Shown here one piece after another: positions 3,205 through 42,022 of a stretch of DNA of 44,704 bases. The stretch is from Anaerolineae bacterium (GTDB taxonomy: Bacteria > Chloroflexota > Anaerolineae > S140-20), in NCBI GenBank assembly GCA_034435435.1, contig DAOTXN010000147.1, forward strand, positions 1 to 44,704. Direction: 5' to 3'. The notes under the pieces are model-generated. The model was not told the DNA's origin and searched no databases. It was given only the letters and a program-made list of their open reading frames with translations. A program made the translations under genes and the position numbers. Within the stretch, counting starts at the first letter, position 1; each line of letters opens with the position of its first letter.

Positions 3205-3255
3205 CCTGTTCTCGTCACTTGCCCACTTGCAAACTTGCCTGCATGGAGAGAGTCG

Positions 3256-4668: not shown

Positions 4669-4801
4669 ATGCCGTCGTCGGCTGTGACGTTTTTGTCATA
4701 TAGGGATCATATTAGACTCGGTCCGACAGTGCTATGATAGAGGCGTGTTCGGCGACCTGCGAGCACCCCATCACGTCCGTCTTTAATCGCACCGAGGCGA
4801 T

Positions 4802-18130: not shown

Positions 18131-19027
18131 TCACTGCTCCGCCTTTTCCATCCGCGCGGCCAGGTCGTCGGTCGTCGGCTCCGTGTAGATCATCGTCGTC
18201 TCGATGGAAGCGTGCCCCAGAATGGCCGCGAGGTTGCGCAGATCGCCCGGGTTCTCGTCGAGATAGCGTTTGGCGAACGTGTGCCTCAAAACGTGAGCGC
18301 TGACCGCCTGCTCGTCCACGCGGGCCATTCGGGCGTACTTTTTCAACATCCGCCACACCCCCGACCGGGAGCGCAGCGGTCCCCGCTGGCCCACCCACAG
18401 CGGATCGTCCGCGCTCAGGTCTGGGTACACAGCCAAGTAAGCCCGTAACGCCCGGCGCACCGGCGGGGTGAGCGGTACCTCGCGATACACCTCATTCTTG
18501 CCCTTGCGCACCACCACCGCGCCATTGCGCTCCCCGGCGGCCACGTCACCCCGTTTCAGCTCGAGCAGTTCTTCCACGCGCAACCCCGCCCCCAAAAGCA
18601 GCTCGACCATGGCCGCATCCCGCGCGTCCCCGGCGGCGTGCACGTGTCGCAGCAGGCGGCGCACCTGGCCTTTGCCCAGCGCTTTGGGCTGGTGCTTGTC
18701 CCGGCGCACTCCCTTGACCTCGGCGGTGGGATCGTTGCGCAGGTGACCTTTGGCCGTGGCCCACCGATAGAAACGCGAGAGGGCCACCAGGCGTTGGTTG
18801 ATGGTGGCCGGTTTGGCGTGCTCGACGCTTTGTTGGTGGGCCTTCCAGTCGTGAACGTCGCGGGGGATGATGAGGGCCGGGTCGAAGGGCTGGCCGTAGG
18901 TCTGCCGATTACAGCGAGCAAAGTGCCGCAGCGCGCGGGCATAACCGGCCAGGGTGTGCGGGCTTTTGCCATCGCGTTCCAGGTGGGCGAGCCATTCTCC
19001 GACGAGTGCATGGGAGGTGTGGGGCAT
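18131..19027 (-). CDS. Tyrosine site-specific recombinase/integrase (XerC/XerD-like), 298 aa
   Basis: N-terminal SAM-like domain (GEWLAHLERDGKSPHTLAGYARALRHF). Catalytic residues: R (LRVEELLELK), HxxR (LRHTFAKRY), GH and Y (LGHASIETTMIYTE). Confidence 0.8.
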   Translation of the reverse strand: MPHTSHALVGEWLAHLERDGKSPHTLAGYARALRHFARCNRQTYGQPFDPALIIPRDVHDWKAHQQSVEHAKPATINQRLVALSRFYRWATAKGHLRNDPTAEVKGVRRDKHQPKALGKGQVRRLLRHVHAAGDARDAAMVELLLGAGLRVEELLELKRGDVAAGERNGAVVVRKGKNEVYREVPLTPPVRRALRAYLAVYPDLSADDPLWVGQRGPLRSRSGVWRMLKKYARMARVDEQAVSAHVLRHTFAKRYLDENPGDLRNLAAILGHASIETTMIYTEPTTDDLAARMEKAEQ

Positions 19028-20018: not shown

Positions 20019-20606
20019 ATGCAAATCGTACCCAACACTCTGACTCACGAGCGCGTGGTAGCCTTTGTGGACTATCACAACACCGTCCACGCTCTGCGCC
20101 GCGAGGGCCGCCGCATCGACCTGGGCGCGCTACGCGCATACCTGGCCGAAGGCCGCCACTTACTGGAGGCCTTCCTCTACATCGCCACCCATCCGCGCCC
20201 CGAGCGCTACGAGGCCGACGCCGCCACACTACACCGCTTGCGCCAGCACGGCTTCCTCGTCCGCACCAAGATGGGCCAACTCCTGCCCAACGGTCGCCTC
20301 AAGTGCGACTTTGATCTCGAAATGGCCCTGGACGTCCAGGAGTTCGCTGCCCGCACCCATCCCGACATCATCGTCCTGGTCAGCGGCGACGGCGATTTCG
20401 CCCCCCTGGTGCAGCGGCTGCGTCTTCAGGGCGTCCGCGTCGAAGTCGCCTCGACCCCGGGCAGCGTCTCGGCGAACCTGCGGGCGATGGCCAATGGATT
20501 CGTTGACCTCACCCGCCTGGGCGACGTCGTAGACCATCTGGGCCTGCCCGAAGCGGAACACATCCTCGCCGGCACGCCTATCGCCGCGACTGAGCTGGCG
20601 CTCTAG
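20019..20606 (+). CDS. NYN-domain (LabA-like, PIN-fold) putative RNase, 195 aa
   Basis: VAFVDYHN...CDFDLEMALDVQEFA...DIIVLVSGDGDFAPLVQRLRLQGVRVEV matches NYN/LabA conserved Asp positions. RBS AGGAGGTGAAACATG. Confidence 0.65.
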   Translation: MQIVPNTLTHERVVAFVDYHNTVHALRREGRRIDLGALRAYLAEGRHLLEAFLYIATHPRPERYEADAATLHRLRQHGFLVRTKMGQLLPNGRLKCDFDLEMALDVQEFAARTHPDIIVLVSGDGDFAPLVQRLRLQGVRVEVASTPGSVSANLRAMANGFVDLTRLGDVVDHLGLPEAEHILAGTPIAATELAL

Positions 20607-21026: not shown

Positions 21027-21518
21027 ATGGCTCTCGACTGGCTCAAATCGAAAATGGAACAGAACCGGGAACCAGATGCCAACCGCCGCAATCAGCGGAT
21101 TGACGCCGAAGTCATGATGATTGCGCCGCGCTTCAGCCGCCCGCCTTATCAAGGCTTGGTTTATGACGACCAGGGACGCGACTGGCTGGTCGTCCCCGAT
21201 TATCCGCTGCCCGACCGCTTTCGGGATCGCCAGGCCGACTTGCTCATCGTCTTTCCCGAGACCTATCCTGAAACGCCGCCCATCGGCTTTTACCTCAACC
21301 AGCAGTTTCCACTGCGCAACGGCGCGCACGATGCGCATGCCACCGGCAAAGCCTATCACGGCGCCCCGGACCTGACCGATCAGGGTTGGCACTGGTATTG
21401 CGTGCAGATGGACATGGCCACCGCCGGCGCGTGGCGTCCCCAGATCGACCATCGCCAGCCGGACAACTTGTGGACCTTTTTGAACATGGTTCGAGAGGCC
21501 CTGACCAACGACGATTAG
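21027..21518 (+). CDS. Prokaryotic E2 (UBC-like) ubiquitin-conjugating enzyme homolog
   Basis: Size and position between the Ubl and E1 genes. Candidate catalytic Cys in WHWYCVQMD. RBS AAGGAGGCCGCCAATG. Call rests mainly on operon context and overall resemblance to bacterial E2-like families. Confidence 0.45.
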   Translation: MALDWLKSKMEQNREPDANRRNQRIDAEVMMIAPRFSRPPYQGLVYDDQGRDWLVVPDYPLPDRFRDRQADLLIVFPETYPETPPIGFYLNQQFPLRNGAHDAHATGKAYHGAPDLTDQGWHWYCVQMDMATAGAWRPQIDHRQPDNLWTFLNMVREALTNDD

Positions 21519-21547
21519 CCAACCAGCCATCCGAAAGGAGGAGCCTG

Positions 21548-23104
21548 ATGAACTACACCCTCTCACTCACACGACACGCAGCCGAAACGTTGCAAGCCCA
21601 TCTCCTGGGCGACCGGAGCCGCGAGCAGATGGCCATCACCTTGTGCGGCGTCAACCGGCTGCGCCGCGAGCTGCGCTTGCTGGTGCGCGACGTGATCCTG
21701 CTGCCGCCTGACGCCTTCCGTCACCAGACCGCCGCCTATCTGGAACTCAAGCCCGAAGTGCAGGCCCACGTCCACCGCCGGGCGCACCAGCATAGGCTGG
21801 TGCAGGTAGACTGGCACAGCCATCCTGCACCCGGTTTGCCTGCCACCTTCTCGGCTGTGGATGACCGGCACGAGGCAGCCCAGGCCCTCTACCTGGCTCA
21901 ACGCATGGACGGCGTGCCTTACGGATCAGTCGTCGTCAGTCCGCAGGCGCTCGACGCCCGCTTGTGGATCGTGACGCAACGAGGACGGAAAGGGCGGGCC
22001 GCGCCGACGCCGGCGCACCCCCAGGCCCACCCGCTAAACGCCGTGCTCTTCGGCGACCTGCAGCGTCGAATTCCCCTCAGCGCCCAACAGCAGGCGGATG
22101 CGCCGGGCCTCTCTGCGATCTTTGACCGCCAGGTGCGGGCCTTTGGCGCGGCCTTTCAGCGCCAGGTCGCTCAACTGCGCGTCGGCGTCGTCGGCCTGGG
22201 CGGGTTGGGCAGCGCGCTGGCGGCGCATCTGGCGCGTATGGGCGTGCGCGACTGGGTGCTGGTAGACCCCGACGTGGTGGAGCTGTCCAATCTGAACCGC
22301 CTGGTCAATGCCACGTTGACAGACGCGCAGAAAAACCGGCCCAAGGTCTACGTCGCTCGCAGCAGCGTGCGCCAGGCCCAGCCCCAGGCCCGCGTGCGCG
22401 CGATGCAGGTTGACGCCTTTGATCCCGCCGCGCAGCGCGCTCTCAAGGCTTGCGACCTGCTCATCCTCGCCACCGACAATCACAGCAGCCGCATGGCCCT
22501 CAACCGGCTGGCCGCGCAATACCCCATCCCGCTGCTCCACGTCGGATTCAACATCAGCGTTGGACCAGTTGGCAACTTGTCCGACGTTAGCGGCGAGCTT
22601 GTCATCCCCGACCTGGGACAGTGGTGTCTGCAATGCGCCGGCATCGTGAACCCACAGCAGGCGGGTTGGGAGCTGGCGTCCGACTCGCAGCGAGACCTCT
22701 TGCGCCAACGCGGTTACGTAACCGACACGCCCGCGCCTGCCGTGGGCCACCTGGACGGCGTGGTGGCTGCGTTGGCCGCCGCCGAGGTGCACAACCTGGC
22801 AAGCCGCTACAAGCCCCAGCAGCGCTACCTGACCTACGACGCGCTGCGCGGAGAACTGGCGCCCTTGCAGGTGACGCCCAGCGGCGATTGCCCGGTGTGT
22901 AGCCTCGATCACGGCGTGCTGGGGTTGGGCGACTTGGAGCCGCTACCGGATTACACCCGGCAGGCGACGCTGCTCCTGCCGCCTTCGGTTGCTCGCCCGC
23001 TGCCGGACATCCCTGGCCCCAACGGGAAAACGCTCCAAACGGCCACGCCCCTGCCCGACCGCACGGCGCGCGCCCGCCGAATGCGGGCGGCGCTGGACGA
23101 ATAG
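21548..23104 (+). CDS. Fusion of an N-terminal JAB/JAMM-like deubiquitinase domain and a C-terminal E1-like (ThiF/MoeB) adenylyltransferase
   Basis: JAMM-like HSHPAPGLPATFSAVD (HxH...S..D). E1 Rossmann: LRVGVVGLGGLGSALAAHLARMGVRDWVLVDPDVVELSNLNRL. Zinc-ribbon cysteines CLQCAG and CPVC as in MoeB/ThiF. RBS AAGGAGGAGCCTGATG. Confidence 0.6.
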   Translation: MNYTLSLTRHAAETLQAHLLGDRSREQMAITLCGVNRLRRELRLLVRDVILLPPDAFRHQTAAYLELKPEVQAHVHRRAHQHRLVQVDWHSHPAPGLPATFSAVDDRHEAAQALYLAQRMDGVPYGSVVVSPQALDARLWIVTQRGRKGRAAPTPAHPQAHPLNAVLFGDLQRRIPLSAQQQADAPGLSAIFDRQVRAFGAAFQRQVAQLRVGVVGLGGLGSALAAHLARMGVRDWVLVDPDVVELSNLNRLVNATLTDAQKNRPKVYVARSSVRQAQPQARVRAMQVDAFDPAAQRALKACDLLILATDNHSSRMALNRLAAQYPIPLLHVGFNISVGPVGNLSDVSGELVIPDLGQWCLQCAGIVNPQQAGWELASDSQRDLLRQRGYVTDTPAPAVGHLDGVVAALAAAEVHNLASRYKPQQRYLTYDALRGELAPLQVTPSGDCPVCSLDHGVLGLGDLEPLPDYTRQATLLLPPSVARPLPDIPGPNGKTLQTATPLPDRTARARRMRAALDE

Positions 23105-23134: not shown

Positions 23135-23168
23135 CCCCCGGTTGTTCCAAGCGACCGGGGGTTCTTTA
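23135..23168. terminator. Bidirectional terminator-like hairpin CCCCCGGT-(11 nt)-ACCGGGGG followed by a T-rich stretch, between the convergent E1 gene and the membrane-CARF gene
   Basis: 8-bp GC-rich stem followed by TTCTTTATT, read from the sequence. Confidence 0.45.
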
Positions 23169-23810
23169 TTCGAATCGTGTGACAAAGACGCCGCGCTGGG
23201 TGTGGGGAAGAGGTTTGTTGTCAGCGTCGTAATCCGAGCGCACGTACTGGCAATCCACGCGGCGCTCGGTCGCCACGGAAAAGGCGCCGGCCGACATGAT
23301 GGCCGTGCCGCCGGTAATGTCTATGGCCGTCCTGGACAGTTCTACCCGATGTTGGGCCAACCAATCCAGCAAAAAAGCCGTCTTGGCCCGCACCTCGACC
23401 ACGCTCCAGGGATCCACGCTCTCTTTTTGGATGCAATCCGCCTCCAGCCCAGACGCCTCGGCAACCACGGCGGCGAGCTCTTCGGTTTGGCGGCTGCAGA
23501 TCAGCCCCAACCAGGCCGGTTTTTGCCGCTGCAAGGCCAGCAGGAGTGTATCTTTTTGGCCCCCGACGGTGAAAATCAGGCCGTCGCGCGGTATTTGAAA
23601 GGCTTCGCCGGCCCCGTAGCGCGGTCGGCGGCGGCGCAGCAGCGCGACCAGCCAGAATATCACGACCAGCAAAACCAGCCCGCCCAACGTGGTGACGGCC
23701 AACAGCAACAAACTGCCGGTGAAAGCGGCGCTGACTACGCTCTGCAGCCAGATGCCGGCGATCAACAGCTCGACCCAGCGGCTCTGAAAAAAGCGTTTGA
23801 TCTCGTGCAT
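23166..23810 (-). CDS. Membrane-anchored CARF-domain protein (Cam1-like/Csx23-like candidate cyclic-oligoadenylate sensor), 214 aa
   Basis: N-terminal hydrophobic segment (ELLIAGIWLQSVVSAAFTGSLLLLAVTTLGGLVLLVVIFWLVALL) followed by basic RRRRPRY. C-terminal soluble domain has a DITGGTAIMSAGAF motif that parallels the NYTGGSKSMAAQSY motif of the CARF protein at 34105..35289. Co-oriented with the type III cas operon. Confidence 0.5.
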   Translation of the reverse strand: MHEIKRFFQSRWVELLIAGIWLQSVVSAAFTGSLLLLAVTTLGGLVLLVVIFWLVALLRRRRPRYGAGEAFQIPRDGLIFTVGGQKDTLLLALQRQKPAWLGLICSRQTEELAAVVAEASGLEADCIQKESVDPWSVVEVRAKTAFLLDWLAQHRVELSRTAIDITGGTAIMSAGAFSVATERRVDCQYVRSDYDADNKPLPHTQRGVFVTRFE

Positions 23811-23819
23811 GGGCGCCTC

Positions 23820-24206
23820 CTACACCTGGCGGGCGACCCGCGCCGCCTCGCGCAGAGCTTGTAGATTGACGATTTCCGCGATCTCGAACTGGGGCGGGGT
23901 GCTCCCGGCCACGGGCCGCATCCACACCACCGCCGGAAAGTAGCCCATCCGCCCGTGCAGTTCGGGCAGCAGGGCGACCGCCGCCGGGGCATAAGCCGGG
24001 GGGTTGATCAGCAGCGGGAGGGTCTGCCACTCCTGGGGCGTCAGGTCGGCGCGGTCGGCGATCTCGGCGATCTGTTCAGCCAGCGGGAGGTCGTGGGTGA
24101 TGTGCACTTGCACGTCGATGACGCGCGCGACGGGCTGGCCGGTCAAGGCTTCGACCTGAGCCAGGTGGTCGGGGGTTAGCGGGTGGGCAAAGTTGAGGAG
24201 GATCAT
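23820..24206 (-). CDS. Hypothetical small protein (128 aa) co-operonic with the membrane-CARF gene
   Basis: ORF with a 4-bp overlap (ATGA) to the upstream RQC-like gene. No assignable motif. Confidence 0.4.
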   Translation of the reverse strand: MILLNFAHPLTPDHLAQVEALTGQPVARVIDVQVHITHDLPLAEQIAEIADRADLTPQEWQTLPLLINPPAYAPAAVALLPELHGRMGYFPAVVWMRPVAGSTPPQFEIAEIVNLQALREAARVARQV

Positions 24207-24844
24207 TTGCGTTGAGCGGGCCGGTCAGGATGTGGGAGCGGCTGTTCGCCTAACGTGTGCAAGGTGTGGTTGATCGCCGTGCGTAGCTTGCGCACCTCGC
24301 GAGCGAACCAGGTTCGCAGCATGGGGGCCAGGTCGCGTCGCTGGCGCTGCTCGATAGCCTGGAGCAGCAAAAGCTTGATGTCGCGGTGAATCGTCTCCAG
24401 CCGGGGCCACACCCGGTCTGGCTGGCCGGCCCCTTCGACGGAGCTCAAGGCGGGCGCCTGCCACTCTTCGAACCAGCCCAACAGCCGCTCCACCCACAGC
24501 GCCTTGACCCGTTCCCAACCCTGTGGCGAGTGGTAGAGCAGGGGGACGTCGCGGTCGTATTCGATGCGCAGCCAGTGATGATAGATGCACCAATCCACCT
24601 TGCGGGCGATTTGCTCGGCGGTGAGGTGTTGCAGCGCGCCATAGTCGGGCAGTTGGTCCCACTCCCACTCTAGCGCTTTTTTGCTGCGCGAGCCGTTGAG
24701 GATCAGTGTCAACCCGCTGCGGCCGGCTGCGCCGACAATGGCGTCGGCAGCCATCAAGATGGCGTTTATTTCGTCCTGGGCCGGCGGTTCGGCCGGCAGG
24801 ACGAGGGTGACGGGGATGGGAGAACGTTTACGACGGCGGGGCAT
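24203..24844 (-). CDS. RQC-like winged-helix domain protein (RecQ C-terminal-like), 213 aa
   Basis: LILNGSRSKKALEWEWDQLPDYGALQHLTAEQIARKVDWCIYHHWLRIEY resembles the RecQ RQC winged-helix signature (..L.GS....I......L..YG.......W...I..LI..G.L). The call rests on that motif pattern only. Confidence 0.35.
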   Translation of the reverse strand: MPRRRKRSPIPVTLVLPAEPPAQDEINAILMAADAIVGAAGRSGLTLILNGSRSKKALEWEWDQLPDYGALQHLTAEQIARKVDWCIYHHWLRIEYDRDVPLLYHSPQGWERVKALWVERLLGWFEEWQAPALSSVEGAGQPDRVWPRLETIHRDIKLLLLQAIEQRQRRDLAPMLRTWFAREVRKLRTAINHTLHTLGEQPLPHPDRPAQRK

Positions 24845-25280
24845 CGTTGTTCTTGGCCTCGGTAAATTCTTCCAAGAGCCGCTGGCTCATTTCCAACACC
24901 AGCGTCGCCTCTTTCAGGGCCTCGTCCGCGTCAAGCTGGGAAAAAATAACCTGGGGCGGCAGCGCCAACTCTTCGTCGCCGTAGATACTTACTTCCCTGT
25001 CCTTGCGCAAGCTCCTGGAAACGTGAATCAGGCGGTCCAACTGGGCTTGAAACCACGGGGGAAACAATTCCCGGTTTTCCCGCATAAAGAAACCCACGTC
25101 GTGCACTCTGGGGACTTCGAGACCCACGAGCCTCAAAACGGCCTTGAGGGCCATCTCGACACACTCTTGACAGCGCCGGACGGCCAGGTGCCACACGCCA
25201 TCGCTTTGAGCCATCCTGGCTTGCTTGAGGGAGTATGCAGCGGTCACGAGATAGCCCTGCGCCATTTCTTCGTTGGTCAT
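24828..25280 (-). CDS. HEPN-domain protein (toxin-like partner of a minimal nucleotidyltransferase)
   Basis: 150 aa, helical. R-x4-6-H candidate in EVPRVHDVGFFMREN. 4-bp overlap with the upstream MNT gene. Confidence 0.55.
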   Translation of the reverse strand: MTNEEMAQGYLVTAAYSLKQARMAQSDGVWHLAVRRCQECVEMALKAVLRLVGLEVPRVHDVGFFMRENRELFPPWFQAQLDRLIHVSRSLRKDREVSIYGDEELALPPQVIFSQLDADEALKEATLVLEMSQRLLEEFTEAKNNDAPPS

Positions 25281-25804
25281 AGCTCGATCACCTCACCCCA
25301 GCGGTAATCGGGTTTCAGCCTCCAATACCGCACACGGCCCTGACGTACCCTTTGGGCGCCTATCTCGCACAATCTTTGCGCCAGTTGATCCAGGATGGTT
25401 TGAAAAAAACCACTCTGGTCATACAAGATGATAGCGTCTTGAGTCAAGTCCAGGTAAAGAGGCGTAAAGCTTTGCGCCTCCTCGGGCGTCTTGATTTTGG
25501 TTGAAAAGTCGGTGTGAATTCCCTGACGGTGCAGGGAGATCAAATGGGGCCAAAGTTCATCTTCAATCTCTACCAGAAGGCGATTGCGGGCGCGGCGTGA
25601 CGCGGGCAGTTCCCTGGCGACGATGAACAAGTCTACGTCGGAGGTGAACGTGTGCTCGCTCCGCGCTACCGAGCCGTACAACACGACGGAGACCAGGCGC
25701 TCGCCGAAATGGCGTTTCAGCGCCTCGGTGTAGGCCTGGGCCGCTTCTAACGCTGACCAGGCGCCCCTGTTTGGGTCCTGTGGCACAGACATGGCATTCC
25801 TCAA
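25277..25804 (-). CDS. Minimal nucleotidyltransferase (MNT/Pol-beta superfamily) partner of the HEPN protein
   Basis: GS-x9-13-DxD motif: VVLYGSVARSEHTFTSDVDLFIVAREL. Confidence 0.65.
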   Translation of the reverse strand: MRNAMSVPQDPNRGAWSALEAAQAYTEALKRHFGERLVSVVLYGSVARSEHTFTSDVDLFIVARELPASRRARNRLLVEIEDELWPHLISLHRQGIHTDFSTKIKTPEEAQSFTPLYLDLTQDAIILYDQSGFFQTILDQLAQRLCEIGAQRVRQGRVRYWRLKPDYRWGEVIEL

Positions 25805-25900
25805 CGGGGATCATTCCCTTGTTCTCGGACCAATGTACCCTGCTTGGCTCGAGATGTCAAGTCTGGCAGCGCCCGGACAAGCGGTAGAGAGCAGCGTTAG

Positions 25901-26020
25901 CCCGCTGCGCTGGGCTGGTCGACGATGGCGGCGGTGGCCATCAGGATGGCGTCTATTTCGGCCTGGGCCGGCGGCCCGGCCGGCAGGGCGAGGGTGGCGG
26001 GGATGCGGCGGCGGCGGAGT
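25901..26020. repeat. Degenerate (~85% identical) copy of the 5' end of the RQC-like gene (24713..24841), lying between the Cas7-CSD gene stop and the MNT gene
   Basis: Direct alignment: CCCGCTGCG..GGC..ATGGCG..GGC.GCCATCA.GATGGCGT.TATTTCG.CCTGGGCCGGCGG..CGGCCGGCAGG.CGAGGGTG.CGGGGATG is shared by both copies in the same orientation. Confidence 0.7.
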
Positions 26021-26025
26021 ATGCC

Positions 26026-28269
26026 TCAGTTTTTGATGCCCCGCACATTTTCGGCTTGCGGGCGACCTTGGTAGCTGCCAACTGTGTAACTCACTCTCTG
26101 CCCTACCTGCAACGATTTTCGCCCTGAGCCGACAATACCGCTGTGGTGAACACGGATTTCGCTGCCATCTTCCTGGGTAATAGAACCGATACCCCGATCA
26201 TCTAACCATTTCTTGACCACTCCGATCTTGGTTGCTGAAGAGGTCGTCTGTTTTATTTGTTCTCTTACCGGCGTGGGCGATTTGACCGGTTGCCCAGCGA
26301 CTGCAGCCAGGGGGTCGGGTAGCACAGGCCGATGCCTGAACCTTTCAAGCTCCATGTACTCTGTTTGCTGGGGCCCAGGCCACTCGAGTATCTTTAACAG
26401 CATTTGAATCCGTGGTACACCCGCCAAAGATGATGCGTTATTGCGCTCGTTCTGGTCCATGTGCGCCAGGACATATCGATCGAATGCCTGGATAAAGCAT
26501 TGGGTATCATCTGGCGTTTCTGCCCTGTGCCACACGGGAAGGATTTGGGCCTTCTCATTTTTACTGAACAGGCAGCTATAGCGACCCATTTCCTCTTTAC
26601 GAGCACTCAAATACAGTGTGGGTTGGAGATGGGCAGAACCCATGCCCAGCGGCTTGCCCATGCCCAGTTTGTGGCGATACTGCTTGTCCGCCTCACCTGG
26701 CAACGTCAAGGCCCAGAGCAAAGCCCCTAGCTCGAAATCGCGCAGGTTCTCAAAATGGATATGAAACTTGAAAGCCACTTTCGACCTGACCGGCTTGATG
26801 CGAGTGTATTGTTTGGGGTGGTCTGTCAATGCCTCCTGATCGAACTCTTGAATATCGTTTAAATTGACATTGCCCCGATGCCAGTAGAGTTTGTGGCCAC
26901 GAATGGTTGTTTTGTGAGGCGGGGGACTGGCATAGTGATCTAGTTGACTTTTATCATCTGGTTCTTGTTGAGTCAGGTAGTGCTGAAAACTAGTTGGCTT
27001 GGGCGAGCCAAGGATCTTTGGCGTGATTGGGTGTTGAGCCGTCCATTCAGCTTGCGCCGCAGGTTCTGACCGTGCATCAGTAATTATGACTCGGCCAGCG
27101 CAGGCGCGATCTTTTACAGGAATGGCATCACTCTTGGTGTAGCCAAAGATAGCCTCGGCCAAATCCCGCTCCGACTCTTTCCGGAGGTCAGGAGGGAGCA
27201 AATCAAGTGGGCTGTTCGGGTAGGGAAGCCGAAACATCTTGGTCGGACCGAAAAAGACCAGTTCACCGGCAACATCGAGCAGATAGAAAAGCGGATCACC
27301 GTCACTCAGTAGTTTTCGTGTGCCTGTACCCAGCCCGCGCGTGAGATCGCGATCTTCCTGGTAGATTTGCCACATCTCGTCAGAAATGGGCACCCATTTG
27401 GCCGAAGGATCTGGCTCAAAGATGACACAGTGCCAATGTTTTTCGTGTCTTCCACCCATATGACCAGATTCGATCAGCGTACCAGGTACCATGCCAGGGG
27501 GTGCACTATGACTTCCGTGGCGAGCCGTTACCCTAGTAGTGATAGCGATATCAAGAATCAAGTCTCCCGGGCCTCGTTGACCACGGTTTTGAGATCCTCG
27601 AGAAGCGGGCTCTACAAACACATCGTAGACCCTTTGTGTCCCTCGTGACTCTCCCGTAATAGATCGGACGTTGTTGTACTCCACGTGTACGAACGATTCA
27701 CCGTTGTGCTCACTTACCGGTTGAATGGCCCACCCATTTGGGGTTTTCTTGAGATAGCCACCCTTGAGACGTGGAGAAGGATAGTCTAGATGCGTGGTCG
27801 GTGGCGCAGCCTTGTTTTTGCCCAGCATTTGCTCTCGATACCAGATTCCTAATGATGAAGGATCGCCTACTGCACGGTAGATGAGCTGTTCGCTGGTGAC
27901 CCACTGTACTTTGCCGTAGCCCACGATTTCCACCAACGATCTGATCATGCCACGCAGAGTGCTGCCCGGAATTACTGGACATTGGCCATCCACAGAGAAG
28001 AACTGAGCTCTTTCGTCTTTTACTTCTTCCGGCAGCTCGTGGAACGGCTTGTCGCCCCAGGCCCTGAAAATCTCTGGACTCATACCTGCCCGGGTGTATA
28101 GAGGCGATTCCGTGGTGAGCAGACATTCGATGTAGCCCGTATACCCGGCATAGACGTCTTGAGGTGGAATGTCATCAACCGTAACCACTTTTTCCGGCAA
28201 TGGAATAAAGTTATAGGGCGCGTGGGCTGTGCGATTTGACTGCTTGGGACTCTTGTGTTTCGGATTCAT
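26026..28269 (-). CDS. cas7: Large Cas7-family RAMP (Cas7 with a large insertion) with a C-terminal cold-shock domain, 747 aa
   Basis: N-terminal HAPYNFIPLPEKV and G-rich loop VIPGSTLRGMIRSLVEIVGYG are typical of type III RAMPs. C-terminal 65 aa (KIGVVKKWLDDRGIGSITQEDGSEIRVHHSGIVGSGRKSLQVGQRVSYTVGSYQGRPQAENVRGI) matches the CspA-type cold-shock domain pattern. RBS GGAGGGGTGAAATG. Confidence 0.6.
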   Translation of the reverse strand: MNPKHKSPKQSNRTAHAPYNFIPLPEKVVTVDDIPPQDVYAGYTGYIECLLTTESPLYTRAGMSPEIFRAWGDKPFHELPEEVKDERAQFFSVDGQCPVIPGSTLRGMIRSLVEIVGYGKVQWVTSEQLIYRAVGDPSSLGIWYREQMLGKNKAAPPTTHLDYPSPRLKGGYLKKTPNGWAIQPVSEHNGESFVHVEYNNVRSITGESRGTQRVYDVFVEPASRGSQNRGQRGPGDLILDIAITTRVTARHGSHSAPPGMVPGTLIESGHMGGRHEKHWHCVIFEPDPSAKWVPISDEMWQIYQEDRDLTRGLGTGTRKLLSDGDPLFYLLDVAGELVFFGPTKMFRLPYPNSPLDLLPPDLRKESERDLAEAIFGYTKSDAIPVKDRACAGRVIITDARSEPAAQAEWTAQHPITPKILGSPKPTSFQHYLTQQEPDDKSQLDHYASPPPHKTTIRGHKLYWHRGNVNLNDIQEFDQEALTDHPKQYTRIKPVRSKVAFKFHIHFENLRDFELGALLWALTLPGEADKQYRHKLGMGKPLGMGSAHLQPTLYLSARKEEMGRYSCLFSKNEKAQILPVWHRAETPDDTQCFIQAFDRYVLAHMDQNERNNASSLAGVPRIQMLLKILEWPGPQQTEYMELERFRHRPVLPDPLAAVAGQPVKSPTPVREQIKQTTSSATKIGVVKKWLDDRGIGSITQEDGSEIRVHHSGIVGSGRKSLQVGQRVSYTVGSYQGRPQAENVRGIKN

Positions 28270-28270
28270 T

Positions 28271-28843
28271 TCACCCCTCCAATCCTACCAAACGGCTCAG
28301 GGCGATATATGCCTGGCCTTCCTCATCATAATCCACGTAATGGCGCACTTTGAGCGCCGGTCGTCGTTTCCCTTGCGGAATCACCGGCGGCGCGTGGCGC
28401 TGGCCCTGTTTCCCTTCCTGGAGCAGGGCGAAGCCGGTCTGTTGGTCTACTTTCACCGGGTTGCCCAGATGCCAGAGCAGGTGTCTCTCGTCTGGCAGCG
28501 CCTTCAATGTGAGGTGGGTATCTTTTATCAGACGAGCGACAAACCCCTTCTTCGTGCGCCAGACCAGCAGTTCTCCCGCCGGGCCAAAGATGCGCGCTTG
28601 CTGCAAGGTCACCGCCCGTAACGGCACGGCGACCGAGGGAAATTCTTTGGAATCGCTGAATACGTCGCTAGAAAGCGCCAAAGTCCCATCGGCCTGCCGC
28701 TTACCCCAGATGACGCCATCGTCGGCGTGGACGAGCAGCCAGGGCATCCCTTCATCCACTCGCTGCGTCAGCCAGGCGCGCGGGTCGCTAACCAATTCTG
28801 TCAGTTTTTCTTTGTCTATCGATATGCCATAGTGCTTGCTCAT
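28271..28843 (-). CDS. Small beta-rich protein inside the RAMP gene array (possibly Csx19-like accessory subunit), 190 aa
   Basis: Translationally coupled on both sides (TGAaATG downstream, 4-bp overlap upstream). Sequence is beta-strand-rich (GVIWGKRQADGTLAL, ELLVWRTKKGFVARL), unlike helical Cas11. Confidence 0.35.
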   Translation of the reverse strand: MSKHYGISIDKEKLTELVSDPRAWLTQRVDEGMPWLLVHADDGVIWGKRQADGTLALSSDVFSDSKEFPSVAVPLRAVTLQQARIFGPAGELLVWRTKKGFVARLIKDTHLTLKALPDERHLLWHLGNPVKVDQQTGFALLQEGKQGQRHAPPVIPQGKRRPALKVRHYVDYDEEGQAYIALSRLVGLEG

Positions 28844-31889: not shown

Positions 31890-32554
31890 CCTTGCACCGC
31901 CTTTCGGAAGCTCGCAAAATGAGTTTCGGTCAGCGGTTCACCGCCCGGGGCAAAGAGCTCCGCCTGCACCCGCCCGCGCCCACGATTGCGCCCGGTGCCG
32001 ACACGTCGCAGCGCTTTGACCGTGGCTGCGAGCAGGGCCAGATCGTCAGAGTTCGGCTCTTCGCTGAAGATGAGTTGCGCACTGAACACGATATCGCGGA
32101 GGATGACCCGCATCGTGCGCAGCGTCTCTTTGCGCGGCGCGCCGCTCTCGTCCATCGCGGTCTGGCGGCGTAGCGTGGTCAACATGTCGAGCACATCGCT
32201 GCGCGTCAGAGTCTTTTTCTCGATGTCACGGGACAAGGCCGCCTGTAAGTCGCGCGGCAGGCGGGCCGGACCAACACGCATGATGGCTTCTCCTTCCAAC
32301 CGCGCCCCGCTCTGACCAAAGAGGCGGGTTGCAGCCCGTTGCCAGCGCGTTTTTTGATCTGGGAGGGCTTTACTCAGGGCATGGACCAGATCGTCGCACT
32401 CTGCGCCCAAGACGCCCTTGAGCGCGCGCCCACCGAGATAGGGTAGGCCGACGGCGTCGTGTTGTACCTCCACATCCACCAGACCGGCCACGCCATCGCC
32501 GCGCCCAAAGGTAGCATCACTCAAGAGGGTCAGTTTGAGTTGATAGACTTTCAT
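31886..32554 (-). CDS. cas7: Cas7 (Csm3/Cmr4-like) RAMP, 222 aa
   Basis: MKVYQLKLTLLSDATFGRGDG...GLPYLGGRALKGVLGAECDDL matches the Csm3-type N-terminal strand plus G-rich loop. Confidence 0.55.
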   Translation of the reverse strand: MKVYQLKLTLLSDATFGRGDGVAGLVDVEVQHDAVGLPYLGGRALKGVLGAECDDLVHALSKALPDQKTRWQRAATRLFGQSGARLEGEAIMRVGPARLPRDLQAALSRDIEKKTLTRSDVLDMLTTLRRQTAMDESGAPRKETLRTMRVILRDIVFSAQLIFSEEPNSDDLALLAATVKALRRVGTGRNRGRGRVQAELFAPGGEPLTETHFASFRKAVQG

Positions 32555-34066
32555 CGTGTTATTTCCTCCTCCAATGGGACAAAAAAGTCCAGCGCCTCCA
32601 CTGCGTCAAAGTAGCCGCAGCGCCCTCCTTGCCAGCCCTGCCCCGCCATCATGGGCAGGCTGCTGATTTCCGGTAGACGTTTCAGATCGGGATACGCGGC
32701 GAGGAAATGCTGCACCGCCTCACGCCCGCCACGCAACGCCTCCCGCAGTGCTTTGACCTTGTTGCGCCGTCCGGCCCAGGAGCCATCTCCATCCTGGAAG
32801 GCCGCCATGATCCGTGTAAAAGTTTCCCATGAGCGCCAATCGCCATTGGGTGGATTTAGCCGCACCGGGCGCATGAGCAGGCTATCGTCATGCACGGTGT
32901 ATTCGCGCTCTCGCACCTCTTTCAACGGCAGCACCAGCCCACTCACGGCAAAGTGCCAATCCAGGGCAGTCAAGCGATCTTTGCCGATATAGCCTTTGGC
33001 CGAGGCTGCCAACGCTTCGGCCAGTTCGTAGGCGCGGGAGAAGGGATAGTGCGATTTGACCACAGCCACACCCGCGCGGGCGTGCGCCTGTTCCTTGTCG
33101 GAAAGGATCTGCTCCGAGAAGACCCGCAGATAGTGCGCGGCGACTGCTAGACCCAGCCGCCCTTCGCAGACGAAGGTGACGTCATCCCCGCCAAAGACGA
33201 TGGGGCGGAAGGGCAAATGATCCACTCCCTTCTTATGCGGGCAAGGCACACGACCTCGTATGCGTTTGCTCACTTGGCCCTTCTCATCCTCAACCTCTTT
33301 GACCGCATCAAACAGTAAATCTACGGTGCTGGCAAGGGCTTTATCCGCTGCTGCTTTTACCGAGTTGGAGAAATTTTTCAACGCCTCACAGTAGTCCTCG
33401 TCGCTCCTTCCCACCAATCCCTGGATACGCTCGCCCATACGGTTGCCGTCGGTGTGGATGATGGCCAAGTAACTGGATTCACCCTTGGTCCCAAAATCAC
33501 CGAAATCATAGACAAATTCATAGCCCTGCTCGGTGAGCCTGGATAACTTTCGGCGAAGCTGGGCTTTGCCGTCTTCAGTTGCGCGTAGTTTGGCTTGCAC
33601 CTCGGCGGAAATCAGTTGCCCATCGTCGTTGGTGCCGACTGCCGGCGCGCCGGTGTAGACGCAGGCAGCGGTGACGCCCAGGCCCAGGAGCGGCGTGGAT
33701 GGGCGGCGGTTCAGTTTGCGTTGGGCCAGTTTGCCACGCAACGCCTGGTGCGTATCGCGCAACTGCCCCGACGCGAAAGTCTGCCGCGCTACGACCAGTT
33801 GCAGGCCGGGCGCGTCTTTGAGCGCCTGGTAGGTCAGCTCGCGAGCAAAGGTGTCCGCCTGTACCTCGGTATCAAAGAGCAACATGGCGTTGCCGCCGCC
33901 GGTGTAGACACGCTGTTCCGGCGTGGTCCGCGCCGCGACCCAATCCTCTGTGGCCTGGCGCACCAACTCCGAAGCGCCGATGTTCTGAGCCAGTTGGTTG
34001 CTGCCAAAGATGTAGTTCTGGATGCCGGAAGCTTCCACCAATAACAATGTTTTCTCTGTCATCATC
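32551..34066 (-). CDS. cas10: Cas10-like large subunit lacking an HD domain but retaining the cyclase GGDD motif (type III-D-like), about 505 aa
   Basis: Palm-domain motifs LLLVEASGIQNYIFGSNQLAQNIGASELV and PIVFGGDDVTFVCEG. No HD motif at the N-terminus. The ATGATG start at 34066/34063 is preceded by AAGGAGGG, and the longer ORF start at 34104 is unlikely. Confidence 0.55.
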
Positions 34067-34104
34067 CCTCCTTGAATGAATGAACGAGAAAGCGAGTGAG
34101 CCAA

Positions 34105-35289
34105 TCAGCGAATCTGACCGGCAATGGCGATCCACTCGCGGAAGTGCTGCGCCAGATCCGGCAAATGTTCCCGCCCAAAGACGCGGATTTTACCCTGAGC
34201 GTCCCAAGACTCACTGACCTCATCTTGTAATGCTTGTGCCTGTTCCACACAACATACCACGGCAAAGCGCGCTTCGTCACCGCCCAATTGCCGGGCACGG
34301 ACAAAGGTCTCCATGAGATGATCCTTGGCGGACTGCGTGCGATCCGTCGCCATGCATGAAAGAGCAAACAACTGATAGCCCAACAATGCCGCCACGTCTA
34401 ATTCAAAACCACGATGACCAGGGCGCTTGAATTCCAATCCCATGCCCACTTGATGCAATCCCAACTGCGCGCTCAACGCCTGCAAATTCTCAAACACGTA
34501 TTCTTCCAGCCAGTCGGCAATGAACAACTTGGTGCAATTGGCGAGGTGGCCGTTTTTGCAGTTTAGTTCGTCGGCTACCCGCTGGGGCGTTGGCGCCACG
34601 CCACATAGCGCCGTAAAGGCAGCGATCACCGGCGCTAAAGCCGGGTATTCGGCCGCGGTAGGCAGCTGCGGATTAGCCTGGCTGAGAGTTTGCAGCCAGG
34701 TGCGCCATTGGTTAAAGCCCGCTTTCGTGCAATGTACCTCCACCAGCGACTGGCGCAAAATCGACGGCATGGCTGGCGGACGCTGTACATTCACTTCGTA
34801 GCCATGCAAGGCGAAAAGGGCCTCAAAATCCACTTGCACGCGCTGGCCTACAAAGATGTGCTGGGTGGGCACACCCGGCGCTTCGATGACGAAGGAGAGC
34901 GTGTCGGCATCCAGGTAGCTGAACACACCACGGGGATAGGCCGCGCGCAAGATGTGATAAGATTGCGCGGCCATCGATTTGCTGCCGCCGGTGTAGTTCA
35001 GGCCGATGCTGGCGTTAGGGCCGATCTCCCGCTTTAAGCTCTGTAGGCGCTGGGCGATCAACTGTGGATCGGACTTGGAGATTTCCCAGAGGGTTAGAGT
35101 CAGATCGCCGCGCTTTTTACGGATCTGTTCACTGAGCTGCTTGGCGATGTCAAAGGTTGTATTGGTATGCAGAAGATAGGCCACGCCGCGCTCTGCGGCC
35201 AGCAACAACGCTGCCACATAATTCGGCAGCGGGTTGGCGCCGACCAGGAGAAACAGCACATCCGTTTGGTAGGGGGAGAAATCGGCCAT
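34105..35289 (-). CDS. CARF-domain effector protein (Csx1/Csm6-like, possible C-terminal HEPN), about 394 aa
   Basis: CARF N-terminal strand-loop DVLFLLVGANPLPNYVAALLLAA and the LNYTGGSKSMAAQSY motif. C-terminal R-x5-H candidate (KIRVFGREH). ATG at 35289 (MADFSPYQ). Confidence 0.5.
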   Translation of the reverse strand: MADFSPYQTDVLFLLVGANPLPNYVAALLLAAERGVAYLLHTNTTFDIAKQLSEQIRKKRGDLTLTLWEISKSDPQLIAQRLQSLKREIGPNASIGLNYTGGSKSMAAQSYHILRAAYPRGVFSYLDADTLSFVIEAPGVPTQHIFVGQRVQVDFEALFALHGYEVNVQRPPAMPSILRQSLVEVHCTKAGFNQWRTWLQTLSQANPQLPTAAEYPALAPVIAAFTALCGVAPTPQRVADELNCKNGHLANCTKLFIADWLEEYVFENLQALSAQLGLHQVGMGLEFKRPGHRGFELDVAALLGYQLFALSCMATDRTQSAKDHLMETFVRARQLGGDEARFAVVCCVEQAQALQDEVSESWDAQGKIRVFGREHLPDLAQHFREWIAIAGQIR

Positions 35290-35322
35290 TGTTGTCCTTT
35301 TCAAAAACACCTGTTTGTCTGA

Positions 35323-36315
35323 CTAGTCCATTCCCTTATCGAGAACATACCTCCCCCCTCCCCACACCACCCCCTTCCCCACGCCCACCCACTGCCCCAG
35401 CCACAGGGCCGGCAACAGCGGGCGCAGATCTGCTTCCGAGGCATACCAGGCCTGACCCACGAATCCTTCCAGCGGCATTGTTCCGCCGCGCTGGCTGTGG
35501 CGGGTCTGGCTCATCCAGGTGGTCTCGTGGTGCTCCAGGCGCACCCCGTCGGCCAGGTCCAGCAGCGGGCCGTACTCGGCCTGGGGCCATTCGCCCGCGC
35601 CGTGCACCTCGCTCAGGATGCGCAGCCGGCGCACGACCGCCCGCGCCAGGGGCGCGAACTCGGGGCGGCGGGCCAGCTCGCCCTGCGCTTTGACCTTGAC
35701 CGGGCTGAGAAAGTGCAGGCGCAAGCGCGTGATTTCAGGTGCGCCGCACCTGACCCAGGTCTGGCCGTCGGCGTAGCTCACCGCCATTCCCTCTACCGGG
35801 TCGCCCTGCCACACACCATCCACGAGCAATGGGACAGTCTGGCCGTCCGGCCCGGTCAGTGCTTCCACCCGGCGTATCACAGCTTTCAAGCGCTCGCGGC
35901 CCATTCCGCGCTCGCCCCCCACCATCAGCGCCGCCACAAAGGCCGGCAGTTGCTGGATGGCCGCCGAACCGATGAGGGCCAATTCAAAACGAAACCAGTC
36001 GCCAACGTCCACCTCACGCCGGCGGTCCTGATTGTCCCACAACGCGTAGCCCGGCGGCGGGGTGGGACCCATCAAGCGTTGCAGCGCTTGCGACCAGGAG
36101 GGGTCGGGCTGGGGTTCCAGCAAGAATCCGAACAGACACTGGCGGGGTCGTTGGCAGCCGTTCCGGCAACGTTCGGGCTGCCGGCACCAGAGGGTCCCCA
36201 GATACCACAGCAAGGCCCGGCGCAGCAGGTCGCCCTTGTAGGGTGGCAGGCGGGCGGGAGCGGCCACCTCTAGCTCGAAGCGCAGGCGCATCAGGCGCAG
36301 TTCCGATAACATATC
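35323..36315 (-). CDS. cas6: Cas6-like CRISPR RNA endoribonuclease (330 aa)
   Basis: C-terminal glycine-rich loop GVGKGVVWGGGRY (G.G.....G.G pattern). N-terminus MLSELRLMRLRFELEVAAPARLPPYKGDLLRRALLWYLG is Cas6-like. Position at the head of the type III operon. Confidence 0.5.
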   Translation of the reverse strand, partial: DMLSELRLMRLRFELEVAAPARLPPYKGDLLRRALLWYLGTLWCRQPERCRNGCQRPRQCLFGFLLEPQPDPSWSQALQRLMGPTPPPGYALWDNQDRRREVDVGDWFRFELALIGSAAIQQLPAFVAALMVGGERGMGRERLKAVIRRVEALTGPDGQTVPLLVDGVWQGDPVEGMAVSYADGQTWVRCGAPEITRLRLHFLSPVKVKAQGELARRPEFAPLARAVVRRLRILSEVHGAGEWPQAEYGPLLDLADGVRLEHHETTWMSQTRHSQRGGTMPLEGFVGQAWYASEADLRPLLPALWLGQWVGVGKGVVWGGGRYVLDKGMD

Positions 36316-36655
36316 AGACCCCTTCCCTGCGCTGCGATGCCACCGGCAAAAAGTCTGACGGATGGTTGAGCAGCAAGACCACGCGCGCGGGCTGGAACAC
36401 GCTGATGGTTTGAAGCAAGGGTTCAATGGAATGGCCCACCGGAAAGGCCAGAGTATCGCAAGCGGGGAATTCCAACGCGCCGCGCTGTTCGGCGTAGCAC
36501 AGCTCGGCCGGCAGCAGGTGTTCTACGTACCAGGCCATGCGCTCGGCCAGGGCGCCGCCGCATTGCCAGTATTGTTGTGTGCGCTCGCGCAGCGCGGCGA
36601 TGCTCAAGTCGCCGCAGGCCGCGTGAGAGGCCCACCATCGGAATGAGGAGTGCAT
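36314..36655 (-). CDS. Hypothetical 113-aa protein, first gene of the minus-strand cas operon
   Basis: ORF with RBS AGGAGA. 2-bp overlap with the cas6 start. No assignable motif. Confidence 0.3.
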   Translation of the reverse strand: MHSSFRWWASHAACGDLSIAALRERTQQYWQCGGALAERMAWYVEHLLPAELCYAEQRGALEFPACDTLAFPVGHSIEPLLQTISVFQPARVVLLLNHPSDFLPVASQRREGV

Positions 36656-40125: not shown

Positions 40126-41277
40126 ATGCTCTCGAATAACTGCTTGACCGATAGCGTTCAGGATGTGCCCCAAGCCCTCATCCGCGCATTGCTCCGCCAC
40201 CCGCGCGCGCTGCAATCCGCGCTGACCGAGGCCGGCCTGGCCCCTCACGACCTGGCGATCTGGGCCAGGGGGCAAGGCGATCTGGCCGACGTGGAAAAAG
40301 TGGCCGGTTGGCTGGCGGTGAGCCAGCGCCCCGGCGCCTATAAACCCCTGCTGGAGGTGGCCGGCAGCCACCTGCGCGCCGGCGACCTGGAAGCCGCCTT
40401 GCCGGTGTTCCGCTGGGCGTACCAGGCCTGGCAAGCGGCCCCCGGTTGGCGCGCCGCGCACCGCTACGACGGGGCCAAGCTGCTGGCGCTGTGGGGCGAG
40501 TGCCTCTATCGGCTGGACCAATCCGCCGAGGCGCAACAGCGCTGGCTGTGGGCGCTGGACGTGGCGCCCGACGCCGAGACGCTTACCCGCCTGGCCCGGG
40601 CCATCGAGCGGGCCGAGGCCGGAGACGCATACGCCGTCGTACTGAGCGAAGCCGTGCGCCGCCGCCTGCCCGGCGCCGCCGCGCTGCAGGAGCGCTGGGA
40701 GCGCATCAACGCCCTCACCGCCGTGGAGAGCGACGCATCCGACGCCAAAGCGCCCCAGCCCCAATTATCATCCCGAGCTCGTCGAGGGACTACCGCCGTT
40801 CTGGCCGATGTGGCCAACCTGGACCTGGTGTGCGGCGAGCAATTCGGCTACGGGCGACGGCTGGATTATGGCCGCCTGCTGCAAGCCGCTGAGCATTACG
40901 GCCCGGTCGTGATCAAGCTGGCCTGTGTACCCAACGTGCCCGACACGCTGGATGTGCGCGAACACCTGATCCAGGCCGGCTTTGAGATTGACCTCAAGCG
41001 CCCCAAGCGCAGCCACGGGCGCATCGTCGCCAACGCCGACACGGCCATGGCTGCCTTTGCTGTGCGCTGGGCCAGCGACCCGCAAATCGAGCGACTCGAG
41101 CTATGGACCGGCGACGGCGACTTTGTCAAAGTGCGCGAGGTGGTGACGCAGGCATGGCCGGAAGTCGCCGTGGCCTTTCGGAGCTTCGAGATCGGCACGG
41201 CGGCTGAAATCCGCCAGTTGGAGCAGGATTGGCTTCCTATCGGGGTGGAATACCTGCAAAACCTTCCAGGTTTCTGA
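40126..41277 (+). CDS. Protein with an N-terminal helical/TPR-like region and a C-terminal NYN (LabA-like) nuclease domain, about 383 aa
   Basis: C-terminal TAVLADVANLDL...RLDYGRLLQAAEHYGPVVIKLACVPN...IQAGFEIDLKRPKRSHGRIVANADTAMAAFAVRWASDPQIERLELWTGDGDFVKVREVV matches NYN/LabA. ATG 40126 preceded by CAGGAGGCGTGTG. Confidence 0.55.
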   Translation: MLSNNCLTDSVQDVPQALIRALLRHPRALQSALTEAGLAPHDLAIWARGQGDLADVEKVAGWLAVSQRPGAYKPLLEVAGSHLRAGDLEAALPVFRWAYQAWQAAPGWRAAHRYDGAKLLALWGECLYRLDQSAEAQQRWLWALDVAPDAETLTRLARAIERAEAGDAYAVVLSEAVRRRLPGAAALQERWERINALTAVESDASDAKAPQPQLSSRARRGTTAVLADVANLDLVCGEQFGYGRRLDYGRLLQAAEHYGPVVIKLACVPNVPDTLDVREHLIQAGFEIDLKRPKRSHGRIVANADTAMAAFAVRWASDPQIERLELWTGDGDFVKVREVVTQAWPEVAVAFRSFEIGTAAEIRQLEQDWLPIGVEYLQNLPGF

Positions 41278-41293
41278 GACCTGGAAGGTTTTC
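41261..41293 (+). terminator. Hairpin ACCTTCCAGGT-ttctgag-ACCTGGAAGGT followed by TTTTCG. The NYN gene stop codon sits in the loop.
   Basis: 11-bp perfect stem plus T-tract read from the sequence. Confidence 0.5.
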
Positions 41294-41342
41294 GTTATAC
41301 CAAATAGCAGCCCATTTCGACCATCTGATAGGAGGAAGAACT

Positions 41343-42002: not shown

Positions 42003-42022
42003 GGAGCGCCGAAGGACGGATG

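Follow-up and report, generated by a model that had tools for sequence, protein, structure and literature searches.

A cassette of two genes, encoding a minimal nucleotidyltransferase (MNT) and a HEPN protein, interrupts a type III-D CRISPR-Cas operon on contig DAOTXN010000147.1 (assembly GCA_034435435.1) of an Anaerolineae bacterium. The stretch of this contig that was analysed, 44,704 nucleotides (nt) long, is referred to here as the window. Within it the cassette separates the gene for Cas7-CSD from the gene for a DNA-binding protein of the RQC-minor-1 family, a name that NCBI gives to its homologs. Besides the intact start of the RQC-minor-1 gene (copy 1), a second and damaged version of the same 5' end (copy 2) lies on the far side of the cassette, next to Cas7-CSD. 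Copy 2 is very probably a decaying, non-functional fragment of the original RQC-minor-1 start that was left in place when the MNT-HEPN cassette inserted. The scar is a well-preserved one of a known general kind and not a new kind of system.

The two copies form the longest direct repeat found in a scan of the whole window. Copy 2 (25879-26022, minus strand) repeats in the same orientation the segment 24691-24844 (copy 1, minus strand), which on the coding strand comprises codons 1 to about 51 of the 213-residue RQC-minor-1 gene (24203-24844, minus strand). The ungapped core pairs 24733-24818 with 25920-26005, 86 nt at 87% identity, and a global alignment of 24690-24844 with 25878-26022 gives 118 of 143 identical positions (82.5%) with 14 gap columns. 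The local alignment score is 137, compared with 19.6 ± 2.8 and a maximum of 35 for 500 dinucleotide-preserving shuffles. At the protein level, amino acids 4-48 of RQC-minor-1 match copy 2 at 61% identity (tblastn). An earlier note, made from the letters alone, had described a same-orientation repeat of about 125 bp, or 40 codons, at about 85% identity. The repeat is real, and pairwise alignment places it far above background; its identity agrees with that estimate, whereas its extent does not, being about 145 nt and reaching codon 51 or so. A possible extension of the homology 5' of the ATG (ACCGAGGC versus ACTGAGGC; AAGAAC versus AAAAAC) is too short to be told from chance and was not used.

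Chance similarity or an assembly artefact is hardly credible as the source of the repeat. The window does come from a metagenome assembly, and the region is GC-rich with repetitive GCC-type codons, but the score lies about 42 standard deviations above the shuffles and a divergence of 17% with insertions and deletions (indels) is unlike a collapsed or duplicated assembly repeat. In addition, an independent Logan assembly is identical over 9.7 kb, and the relic stands in the correct frame and position relative to the orthologous loci.

Identity by itself carries less weight. The RQC-minor-1 5' stretch is highly conserved in its family, copy 1 being 74-83% identical in DNA to the same stretch in orthologs from other organisms, and about 85% identity between the copies is therefore no proof of duplication within the genome. 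The evidence for such a duplication comes from the position, frame and adjacency of copy 2. It begins 3 nt past the Cas7-CSD stop codon, the order being TGA (26026-26028), GGC, ATA (26020-26022) and then CTC CGC, so that the earlier note was right to place it directly after that stop.

Comparison with orthologous junctions explains this position. Protein scans with RQC-minor-1 gave 28 related loci (designated by L numbers) from Anaerolineae and other Chloroflexota genomes and from metagenomes, plus an independent assembly identical to the window. Loci without the HEPN/MNT pair exist among them. L004 runs from Cas10 through Cas7-CSD directly into RQC-minor-1 and Csx15, with the junction TGA ccc ATG, and L020 has Cas7-CSD, a spacer of about 70 nt, RQC-minor-1 and Csx15. 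The TGA ggc ATA of the window equals the L004 junction in spacing and frame; copy 2 therefore occupies the ancestral start position of RQC-minor-1, its ATG having decayed to ATA. These junctions support what the earlier note had proposed, namely a footprint of HEPN/MNT insertion into a pre-existing Cas7-CSD/RQC-minor-1 junction, with copy 2 as the relic of a displaced gene start.

The decay of copy 2 can be read at several levels. The start codon is lost (ATA for ATG at 26020-26022), a deletion affects the arginine-rich codons at about 4-9, 1-nt indels are present, and an in-frame TAA stands at 25897-25899, leaving neither a start codon nor an intact frame. A gapless block of 28 codons was compared with 18 non-redundant sequences of the related loci. 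Copy 1 differs from 17 of the 18 at only 0-2 second codon positions (the exception, L012, is misaligned) and from the orthologs at 6-17 third positions. Copy 2 carries five second-position changes of its own, V to A twice, E to G, and D to A twice, at sites that are invariant in 17-18 of the 18 sequences. Between the two copies there are 3 third-position differences, making them each other's nearest relatives at silent sites in this block. With the lost start, the indels, the early stop and the five changes at invariant codon positions, copy 2 has clearly evolved without protein-level constraint and is a pseudogene fragment.

A function for copy 2 is accordingly hard to sustain, whether as a small open reading frame, as a readthrough extension of Cas7-CSD or as a structured RNA insulating the cas operon from the cassette, and we consider it very unlikely. 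The frame of the Cas7-CSD TGA continues open through copy 2 for 41 codons, but that arrangement is inherited, as L004 likewise reads TGA-NNN-ATG, and the frame has no start codon and has residues replaced that are invariant in the family. Its persistence despite about 18% divergence and its unusual GC richness would fit some retained role; yet the RNA of the relic folds no better than shuffles (z = +0.55) and has no match in Rfam, results on which a structured RNA, a terminator or an insulator was rejected. The RNA of the functional RQC-minor-1 5' end (24680-24849, minus strand) does fold better than shuffles, with z = −2.6 and 2 of 200 shuffles as good, and contains a perfect CGUCCUG/CAGGACG stem that the substitutions of the relic break. 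A mosaic origin of RQC-minor-1 with L026/L028, to which the N-terminal 84 amino acids are 83% and the rest 64% identical, was considered and rejected, since the N-terminus is more conserved throughout the family.

Between the copies, MNT and HEPN are the only credible genes, as the earlier note had it, and the cassette they form is intact. A sigma-70-like sequence, TTGACA-17-TACATT (25860-25832, minus strand), lies about 19 nt past the end of the copy homology and matches 10 of 12 hexamer positions. It is the only such site in 24000-26600, where shuffles give 0.5 ± 0.8, and is predicted to be the cassette's own promoter. The MNT gene (25277-25792, minus strand; 171 amino acids) starts at an ATG at 25792 with GAGGA upstream, while the longest open reading frame begins with TTG at 25804. 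It was also called as a gene in the independent assembly. Its product matches Pfam NTP_transf_2 and has the GSx10DxD nucleotidyltransferase motif (GSVARSEHTFTSDVD at residue 40); relatives are 59-67% identical in full-length alignments and up to 74% in local tblastn matches. MNT lies directly upstream of HEPN (24828-25280, minus strand; 150 amino acids), and the two genes overlap by 4 nt, ATGA, at 25277-25280.

Lacking a stop codon of its own, HEPN extends 17 nt into RQC-minor-1, with its last four codons and its TAA inside RQC-minor-1 codons 1-6 in another frame. The right-hand joint of the cassette must therefore fall within a few bases of the RQC-minor-1 ATG. The C-terminal tail of HEPN is not conserved among its homologs. 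Through the 17-nt overlap, translation of RQC-minor-1 is probably coupled to that of HEPN. The DNA upstream of MNT is not conserved in alignments of the relatives, and the left edge is consequently set only by the end of the copy homology.

The identity of the pair is known at the level of protein families. HEPN matches Pfam HEPN (PF05168) at 60.2 bits, and its family shares a conserved block, SRxLRKDRExSxYGD; a search of the 150-residue protein with the pattern R-x(4-6)-H found no HEPN RNase motif Rx4-6H. The pair scores below the MntA/HepT models, the NCBIfam MntA antitoxin model giving 21.1 bits against a cutoff of 60. Searches of solved structures with HEPN, MNT and RQC-minor-1 returned marginal matches only, with no close solved or characterised relative. 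The pair is thus best described as a putative toxin-antitoxin cassette by family membership. The pair has relatives that are 59-76% identical, the value varying with protein and alignment. Those of L031 and L035 lie amid metabolic genes, that of L033 adjoins Cas6 and Csx15, and that of L032 belongs to a further Cas7-CSD operon. These scattered contexts imply that the cassette moves between locations. Insertion as a transposon or insertion sequence with target-site duplication does not fit the data: the insert holds MNT and HEPN with no transposase, no inverted repeats bracket it, and the duplications in three loci have no fixed length (37, 48 and about 145 nt).

These observations suggest the following order of events, which we infer from the arrangement of the locus. 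RQC-minor-1 would originally have started 3 nt past the Cas7-CSD stop in the type III-D operon. A cassette of about 1.03 kb, comprising promoter, MNT and HEPN, would have entered this junction, and RQC-minor-1 would have had its first 145 nt or so duplicated in the process. The upstream copy would have stayed beside Cas7-CSD and decayed, and the other would have come to head the intact gene directly behind HEPN. Where a junction has only 3 nt to spare, an insertion that duplicates it would be one way to keep both flanking genes intact, and because junction-duplicating insertions keep their neighbours intact, scars of this shape would be the ones to pass the presumed filter of selection. The cassette promoter now also stands upstream of RQC-minor-1, Csx15 and the CARF gene and may control them. 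The recombination itself may have been an illegitimate insertion in place with target duplication, a single-crossover (Campbell-type) or one-sided homologous recombination with DNA bearing the cassette and an RQC-minor-1 5' end, or homology-facilitated illegitimate recombination. The longest identical run now shared by the copies is 13 bases, and precise excision by homologous recombination is therefore unlikely today.

Several observations weigh against an insertion scar formed within this genome. No close relative of the organism is available, the best RQC-minor-1 and HEPN homologs being 76% identical, and hence there is no pair of loci from before and after the event within one lineage. The arrangement also rests on one sample, as the second assembly, L009, derives from the single run SRR10095362. 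The identity of 82.5% between the copies is no higher than that between copy 1 and the L020 ortholog (83%). Across all 145 nt, silent sites place the copies nearest to each other by a narrow margin only, with 43-52% bootstrap support; third-position differences number 13 of 47 between the copies and 14-28 of 47 for orthologs, in a segment whose head and frameshifted tail align poorly.

The direction of the substitutions is a further difficulty. From copy 1 to the relic there are 14 changes of A/T to G/C and 6 of the reverse, and 10 of the 11 core differences are A/T in copy 1 and G/C in copy 2. The GC content of the relic is 0.73, compared with 0.47-0.58 in sampled noncoding DNA. Bacterial mutation is generally AT-biased, and a decaying fragment is expected to lose GC; the G/C-biased substitutions of the relic are not what simple neutral decay predicts. 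A smaller relic in L032, described below, has the same G/C tendency, and both relics read GGG where every ortholog has GAA or GAG.

In a different history the incoming DNA would have carried the cassette with the 5' part of a foreign RQC-minor-1 gene already attached. Copy 1 would then be the donor allele and copy 2 the resident one. Homologous recombination anchored in RQC-minor-1 would have joined one end, the other being joined illegitimately at about +145 of the resident gene, and much of the divergence between the copies would predate the event. We regard this import as possible but less likely. Donors are plausible because MNT or HEPN stands upstream of RQC-minor-1 in L005/L023 and L015, and the mechanism is documented elsewhere (PMC5361080 and references in it). 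The divergence between the copies equals that between orthologs, and at several sites copy 2 has the family consensus where copy 1 is derived; copy 1 is often the odd one out, with a D-to-N replacement, C to T at three silent sites and GGC GCA in place of GAC CAG. Against this, the copies are nearest each other at third positions in the well-aligned core (3 differences versus 6-17), and the 5' 155 nt of RQC-minor-1 have the same nearest relatives as the remainder of the gene. The HEPN/copy 1 junction, moreover, does not have the conserved RQC-minor-1 leader GGAGGAATAACCC of the natural MNT-RQC junction in L005; the donor junction would therefore itself have been illegitimate. Taken as tests of a foreign copy 1, the silent-site and 5'-end comparisons are compatible with either origin.

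Insertion of the cassette with duplication of the gene start, the reading we prefer, has independent parallels in two other loci. L032 carries the closest MNT-HEPN relative, 74-76% identical. Its operon reads RAMPs, Csx19, Cas7-CSD, an AAA ATPase, a 335-residue gene, a 53-codon RQC-minor-1 remnant and a 48-nt copy of the Csx15 start that includes cATGA (7642-7689; remnant and relic together span 7485-7768). A 3.6-kb island follows, with PhdYeFM-PIN, an RHH gene and two MNT-HEPN pairs, and then the full Csx15 gene (11238-11619), which over its first 48 nt (11238-11285) shares 90% identity with the upstream copy. A TTGACG-17-TATACT site starts exactly where the homology ends, and the last HEPN gene terminates at the TGA within the duplicated ATGA. 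A 37-nt repeat in L022 (4948-4984 and 5927-5963, 92% identical), made up of the RQC-minor-1 leader, ribosome-binding site and ATG, flanks a PIN/antitoxin cassette in the opposite orientation; the cassette, about 940 nt long, separates a WYL regulator from RQC-minor-1.

How common such scars are was assessed by searching probes around every RQC-minor-1 and Csx15 start against the same locus, for about 20 non-redundant junctions. Relic copies occur only in the window, L032 and L022, and about 17 other junctions have no second copy; two full-length tandem Csx15 paralogs in L033 and a weak match in L017 were not counted as relics. L031, L033 and L035, whose pairs belong to the same MNT-HEPN clade, have no duplicated 5' end of the downstream gene. 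This rules out the duplication as a property of the clade, and the scar therefore belongs to insertions at tight junctions and not to the cassette itself. The scars of L032 and L022 suggest that the effector/accessory boundary of these operons is a repeated landing site for toxin-antitoxin cassettes, and that an insertion into a tight junction persists if it duplicates a gene start.

Another reading is a two-step origin, in which a tandem duplication of the whole RQC-minor-1 gene was followed by replacement of the upstream paralog beyond codon 50 or so by the cassette. Tandem paralogs of accessory genes do occur, the two Csx15 genes of L033 being 80% identical, but tandem RQC-minor-1 genes were not seen among about 39 loci. 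The duplication begins within 1 nt of the start codon in both the window and L032, and this reading would require two separate events, with a deletion ending precisely at the downstream copy's ATG. This origin is unlikely.

A more ambitious proposal is that toxin-antitoxin cassettes colonise the tightly packed accessory ends of Anaerolineae type III-D operons by a recurrent and specific route, with the conserved 5' ends of RQC-minor-1 and Csx15 serving as portable docking sites of homology for the re-integration of circles. It is speculative, and we give it a low probability. If it were true, circles excised between flanking repeats would enter other genomes by single crossover at the corresponding gene start, a duplication of 37-145 nt anchored at the start codon would result each time, and ring nuclease and CARF genes would be put under a toxin-antitoxin promoter.

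RQC-minor-1 is itself found in varied surroundings. Its other upstream neighbours are WYL regulators, a pair of AAA-ATPase and 330-residue genes, an MNT gene, and a conserved noncoding leader, and it also occurs with type I-D-like loci. The noncoding region directly upstream of the gene is about 400 nt long (L028, about 1660-2052; L015, about 330-725; L026, about 150-542; L013, 1-171). Its promoter, TTGCTA-17-TATAAT, is near-perfect, and its leader of about 290 nt contains conserved hairpins. Rfam has no family for this region, which the window lacks and which may act as a structured regulatory leader. The leader end GGAGGAATAACCC ATG is common to many RQC-minor-1 start junctions (L005, L011, L013, L014, L023, L038 and others). 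It is kept whether a WYL regulator, MNT or noncoding DNA lies upstream, with the stop of an upstream gene always at −6, and RQC-minor-1 itself may move as a unit with its leader. In L005 a 43-nt palindromic hairpin repeat (4898-4940 and 6246-6288, 91% identical) brackets the MNT and RQC-minor-1 pair between two Cas6-like paralogs, and the segments noted for this arrangement also include 4631-4754 and 6945-7068. The RQC-minor-1 gene of L005 has a 1-nt frameshift near its start, as have those of L023 and L024, and a DUF3800-IX RNA lies at 306-375 (minus strand) of L005.

The operon that received the cassette is a single one, running from Cas6 to a CARF gene entirely on the minus strand. Cas6 (35323-36426) is followed by a CARF-PD-(D/E)xK Card1-like effector (34105-35310), Cas10 (32551-34104, with a Cas10 palm2 match), three RAMP genes, Csx19 (28271-28843; TIGR03984, 113 versus a cutoff of 35) and Cas7-CSD (26026-28269; 747 amino acids). 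Cas7-CSD is the last core effector gene, a type III RAMP of TIGR03986 (394.8 bits versus a cutoff of 161) with a C-terminal cold-shock domain and Pfam matches to RAMPs and CSD. Cas10, several RAMPs, Csx19 and a TIGR03986 RAMP in one operon identify the system as type III-D. Beyond the cassette, RQC-minor-1 matches NCBIfam NF041107 as a whole protein at 135.4 bits (cutoff 115) and Pfam RQC at 25.3 (cutoff 23); it has 137 homologs, the best non-self one 76% identical. Its stop overlaps Csx15 by 4 nt. Csx15 (23820-24206; 128 amino acids; NCBIfam NF040560, 163.6 bits; PADLOC Csx15) is a ring nuclease (PMC13148439). The last gene encodes a CARF-domain protein of 214 amino acids (23166-23810; PADLOC CARF_2M, E = 4.7e-23), for which Pfam and NCBIfam CARF matches are weak.

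Cas7-CSD differs from its neighbours in GC content (0.52 versus 0.59-0.63), and its residues from about 150 to 350 form an internal hypervariable region, 16-38% identical to L004. The 46% identity of Cas7-CSD to L004, compared with 73-82% for neighbouring genes, raised the possibility that its allele had been replaced, with the relic marking the breakpoint. This was rejected: the low identity is confined to residues 150-350, and the L004 gene is equally low in GC (0.517), which makes low GC a property of the gene. Direct-repeat and tandem-repeat scans of the window detected no CRISPR array, which may sit outside it, although Cas6, Cas1 and all of a type III-D effector operon are present.

A defence island makes up the wider window and includes PglZ and BrxL remnants, an integrase, NYN nucleases, a JAB-E1 fusion, ParE, DUF433 and Cas1 (43359-44222). 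A second cold-shock-domain fusion (41229-42499), with a weak, sub-threshold HORMA-like N-terminus, adjoins an RNase H/RVT_3-like gene and Cas1; together with Cas7-CSD, it gives the CRISPR locus two separate fusions of this domain. The JAB-E1 (ThiF) fusion resembles CBASS Cap2-type E1-E2 proteins and is convergent with the CRISPR operon; a NYN nuclease, a helix-turn-helix protein and a tyrosine integrase lie near it (the group occupies 21386-23104 (+), 20019-20606 (+) and 18131-19027 (−)). At the left edge (1339-4668) PglZ-domain and BrxL (Lon-like) genes are apparently part of a BREX-type system, and large GAF/PAS histidine kinases and response regulators follow them.

The scar offers a readable, polarised record of the entry of HEPN/MNT into the middle of a type III-D operon, in which the ancestral junction can still be seen. 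It is of use for the study of defence-island accretion, and for annotation it means that no gene should be called in the 41-codon open frame that follows Cas7-CSD.

Displaced "orphan" gene fragments are known from Rhs, contact-dependent inhibition and type VI secretion system effector-immunity arrays, where they are attributed to homology-facilitated illegitimate recombination (PMC5361080 and references in it). As in those arrays, the incoming cassette is of toxin type and the receiving operon is conserved; the interrupted gene is restored to an intact form, and a displaced piece of its resident version persists next to it as a diverging direct repeat. The arrays, however, orphan variable 3' ends and immunity genes downstream. 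What remains upstream in the window is the conserved 5' end of an accessory gene that is not a toxin gene, and the genes of the insert bear no relation to the one they interrupt. The layout of target fragment, insert and full target, with the shared segment as a direct repeat, is also that of a Campbell-type integration. In contrast to such integrations, the locus gives no evidence of a circular intermediate or a recombinase, and duplications of 37-145 nt are short for RecA; between copies 1 and 2 the longest run of identity is now 13 bases.

The cassette itself resembles HEPN-MNT modules, of which the type VII HepT-MntA system is the characterised example. It shares with them the NTP_transf_2 and HEPN domains, the order with MNT upstream, the 4-nt overlap, GSx10DxD, a (predicted) promoter of its own and scattered contexts. 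It differs from HepT-MntA in that its HEPN protein belongs to PF05168 and not to HepT and has no Rx4-6H, and in its MntA score of 21 bits against a cutoff of 60. Toxin-antitoxin pairs are also known to border type III CRISPR-Cas modules (PMC6546367, section 3.3), and like them the pair described here lies near type III cas and accessory genes in a defence island. Unlike them, it stands inside the operon, with the last effector gene on one side and the accessory genes on the other, and the scar of its insertion can still be read.

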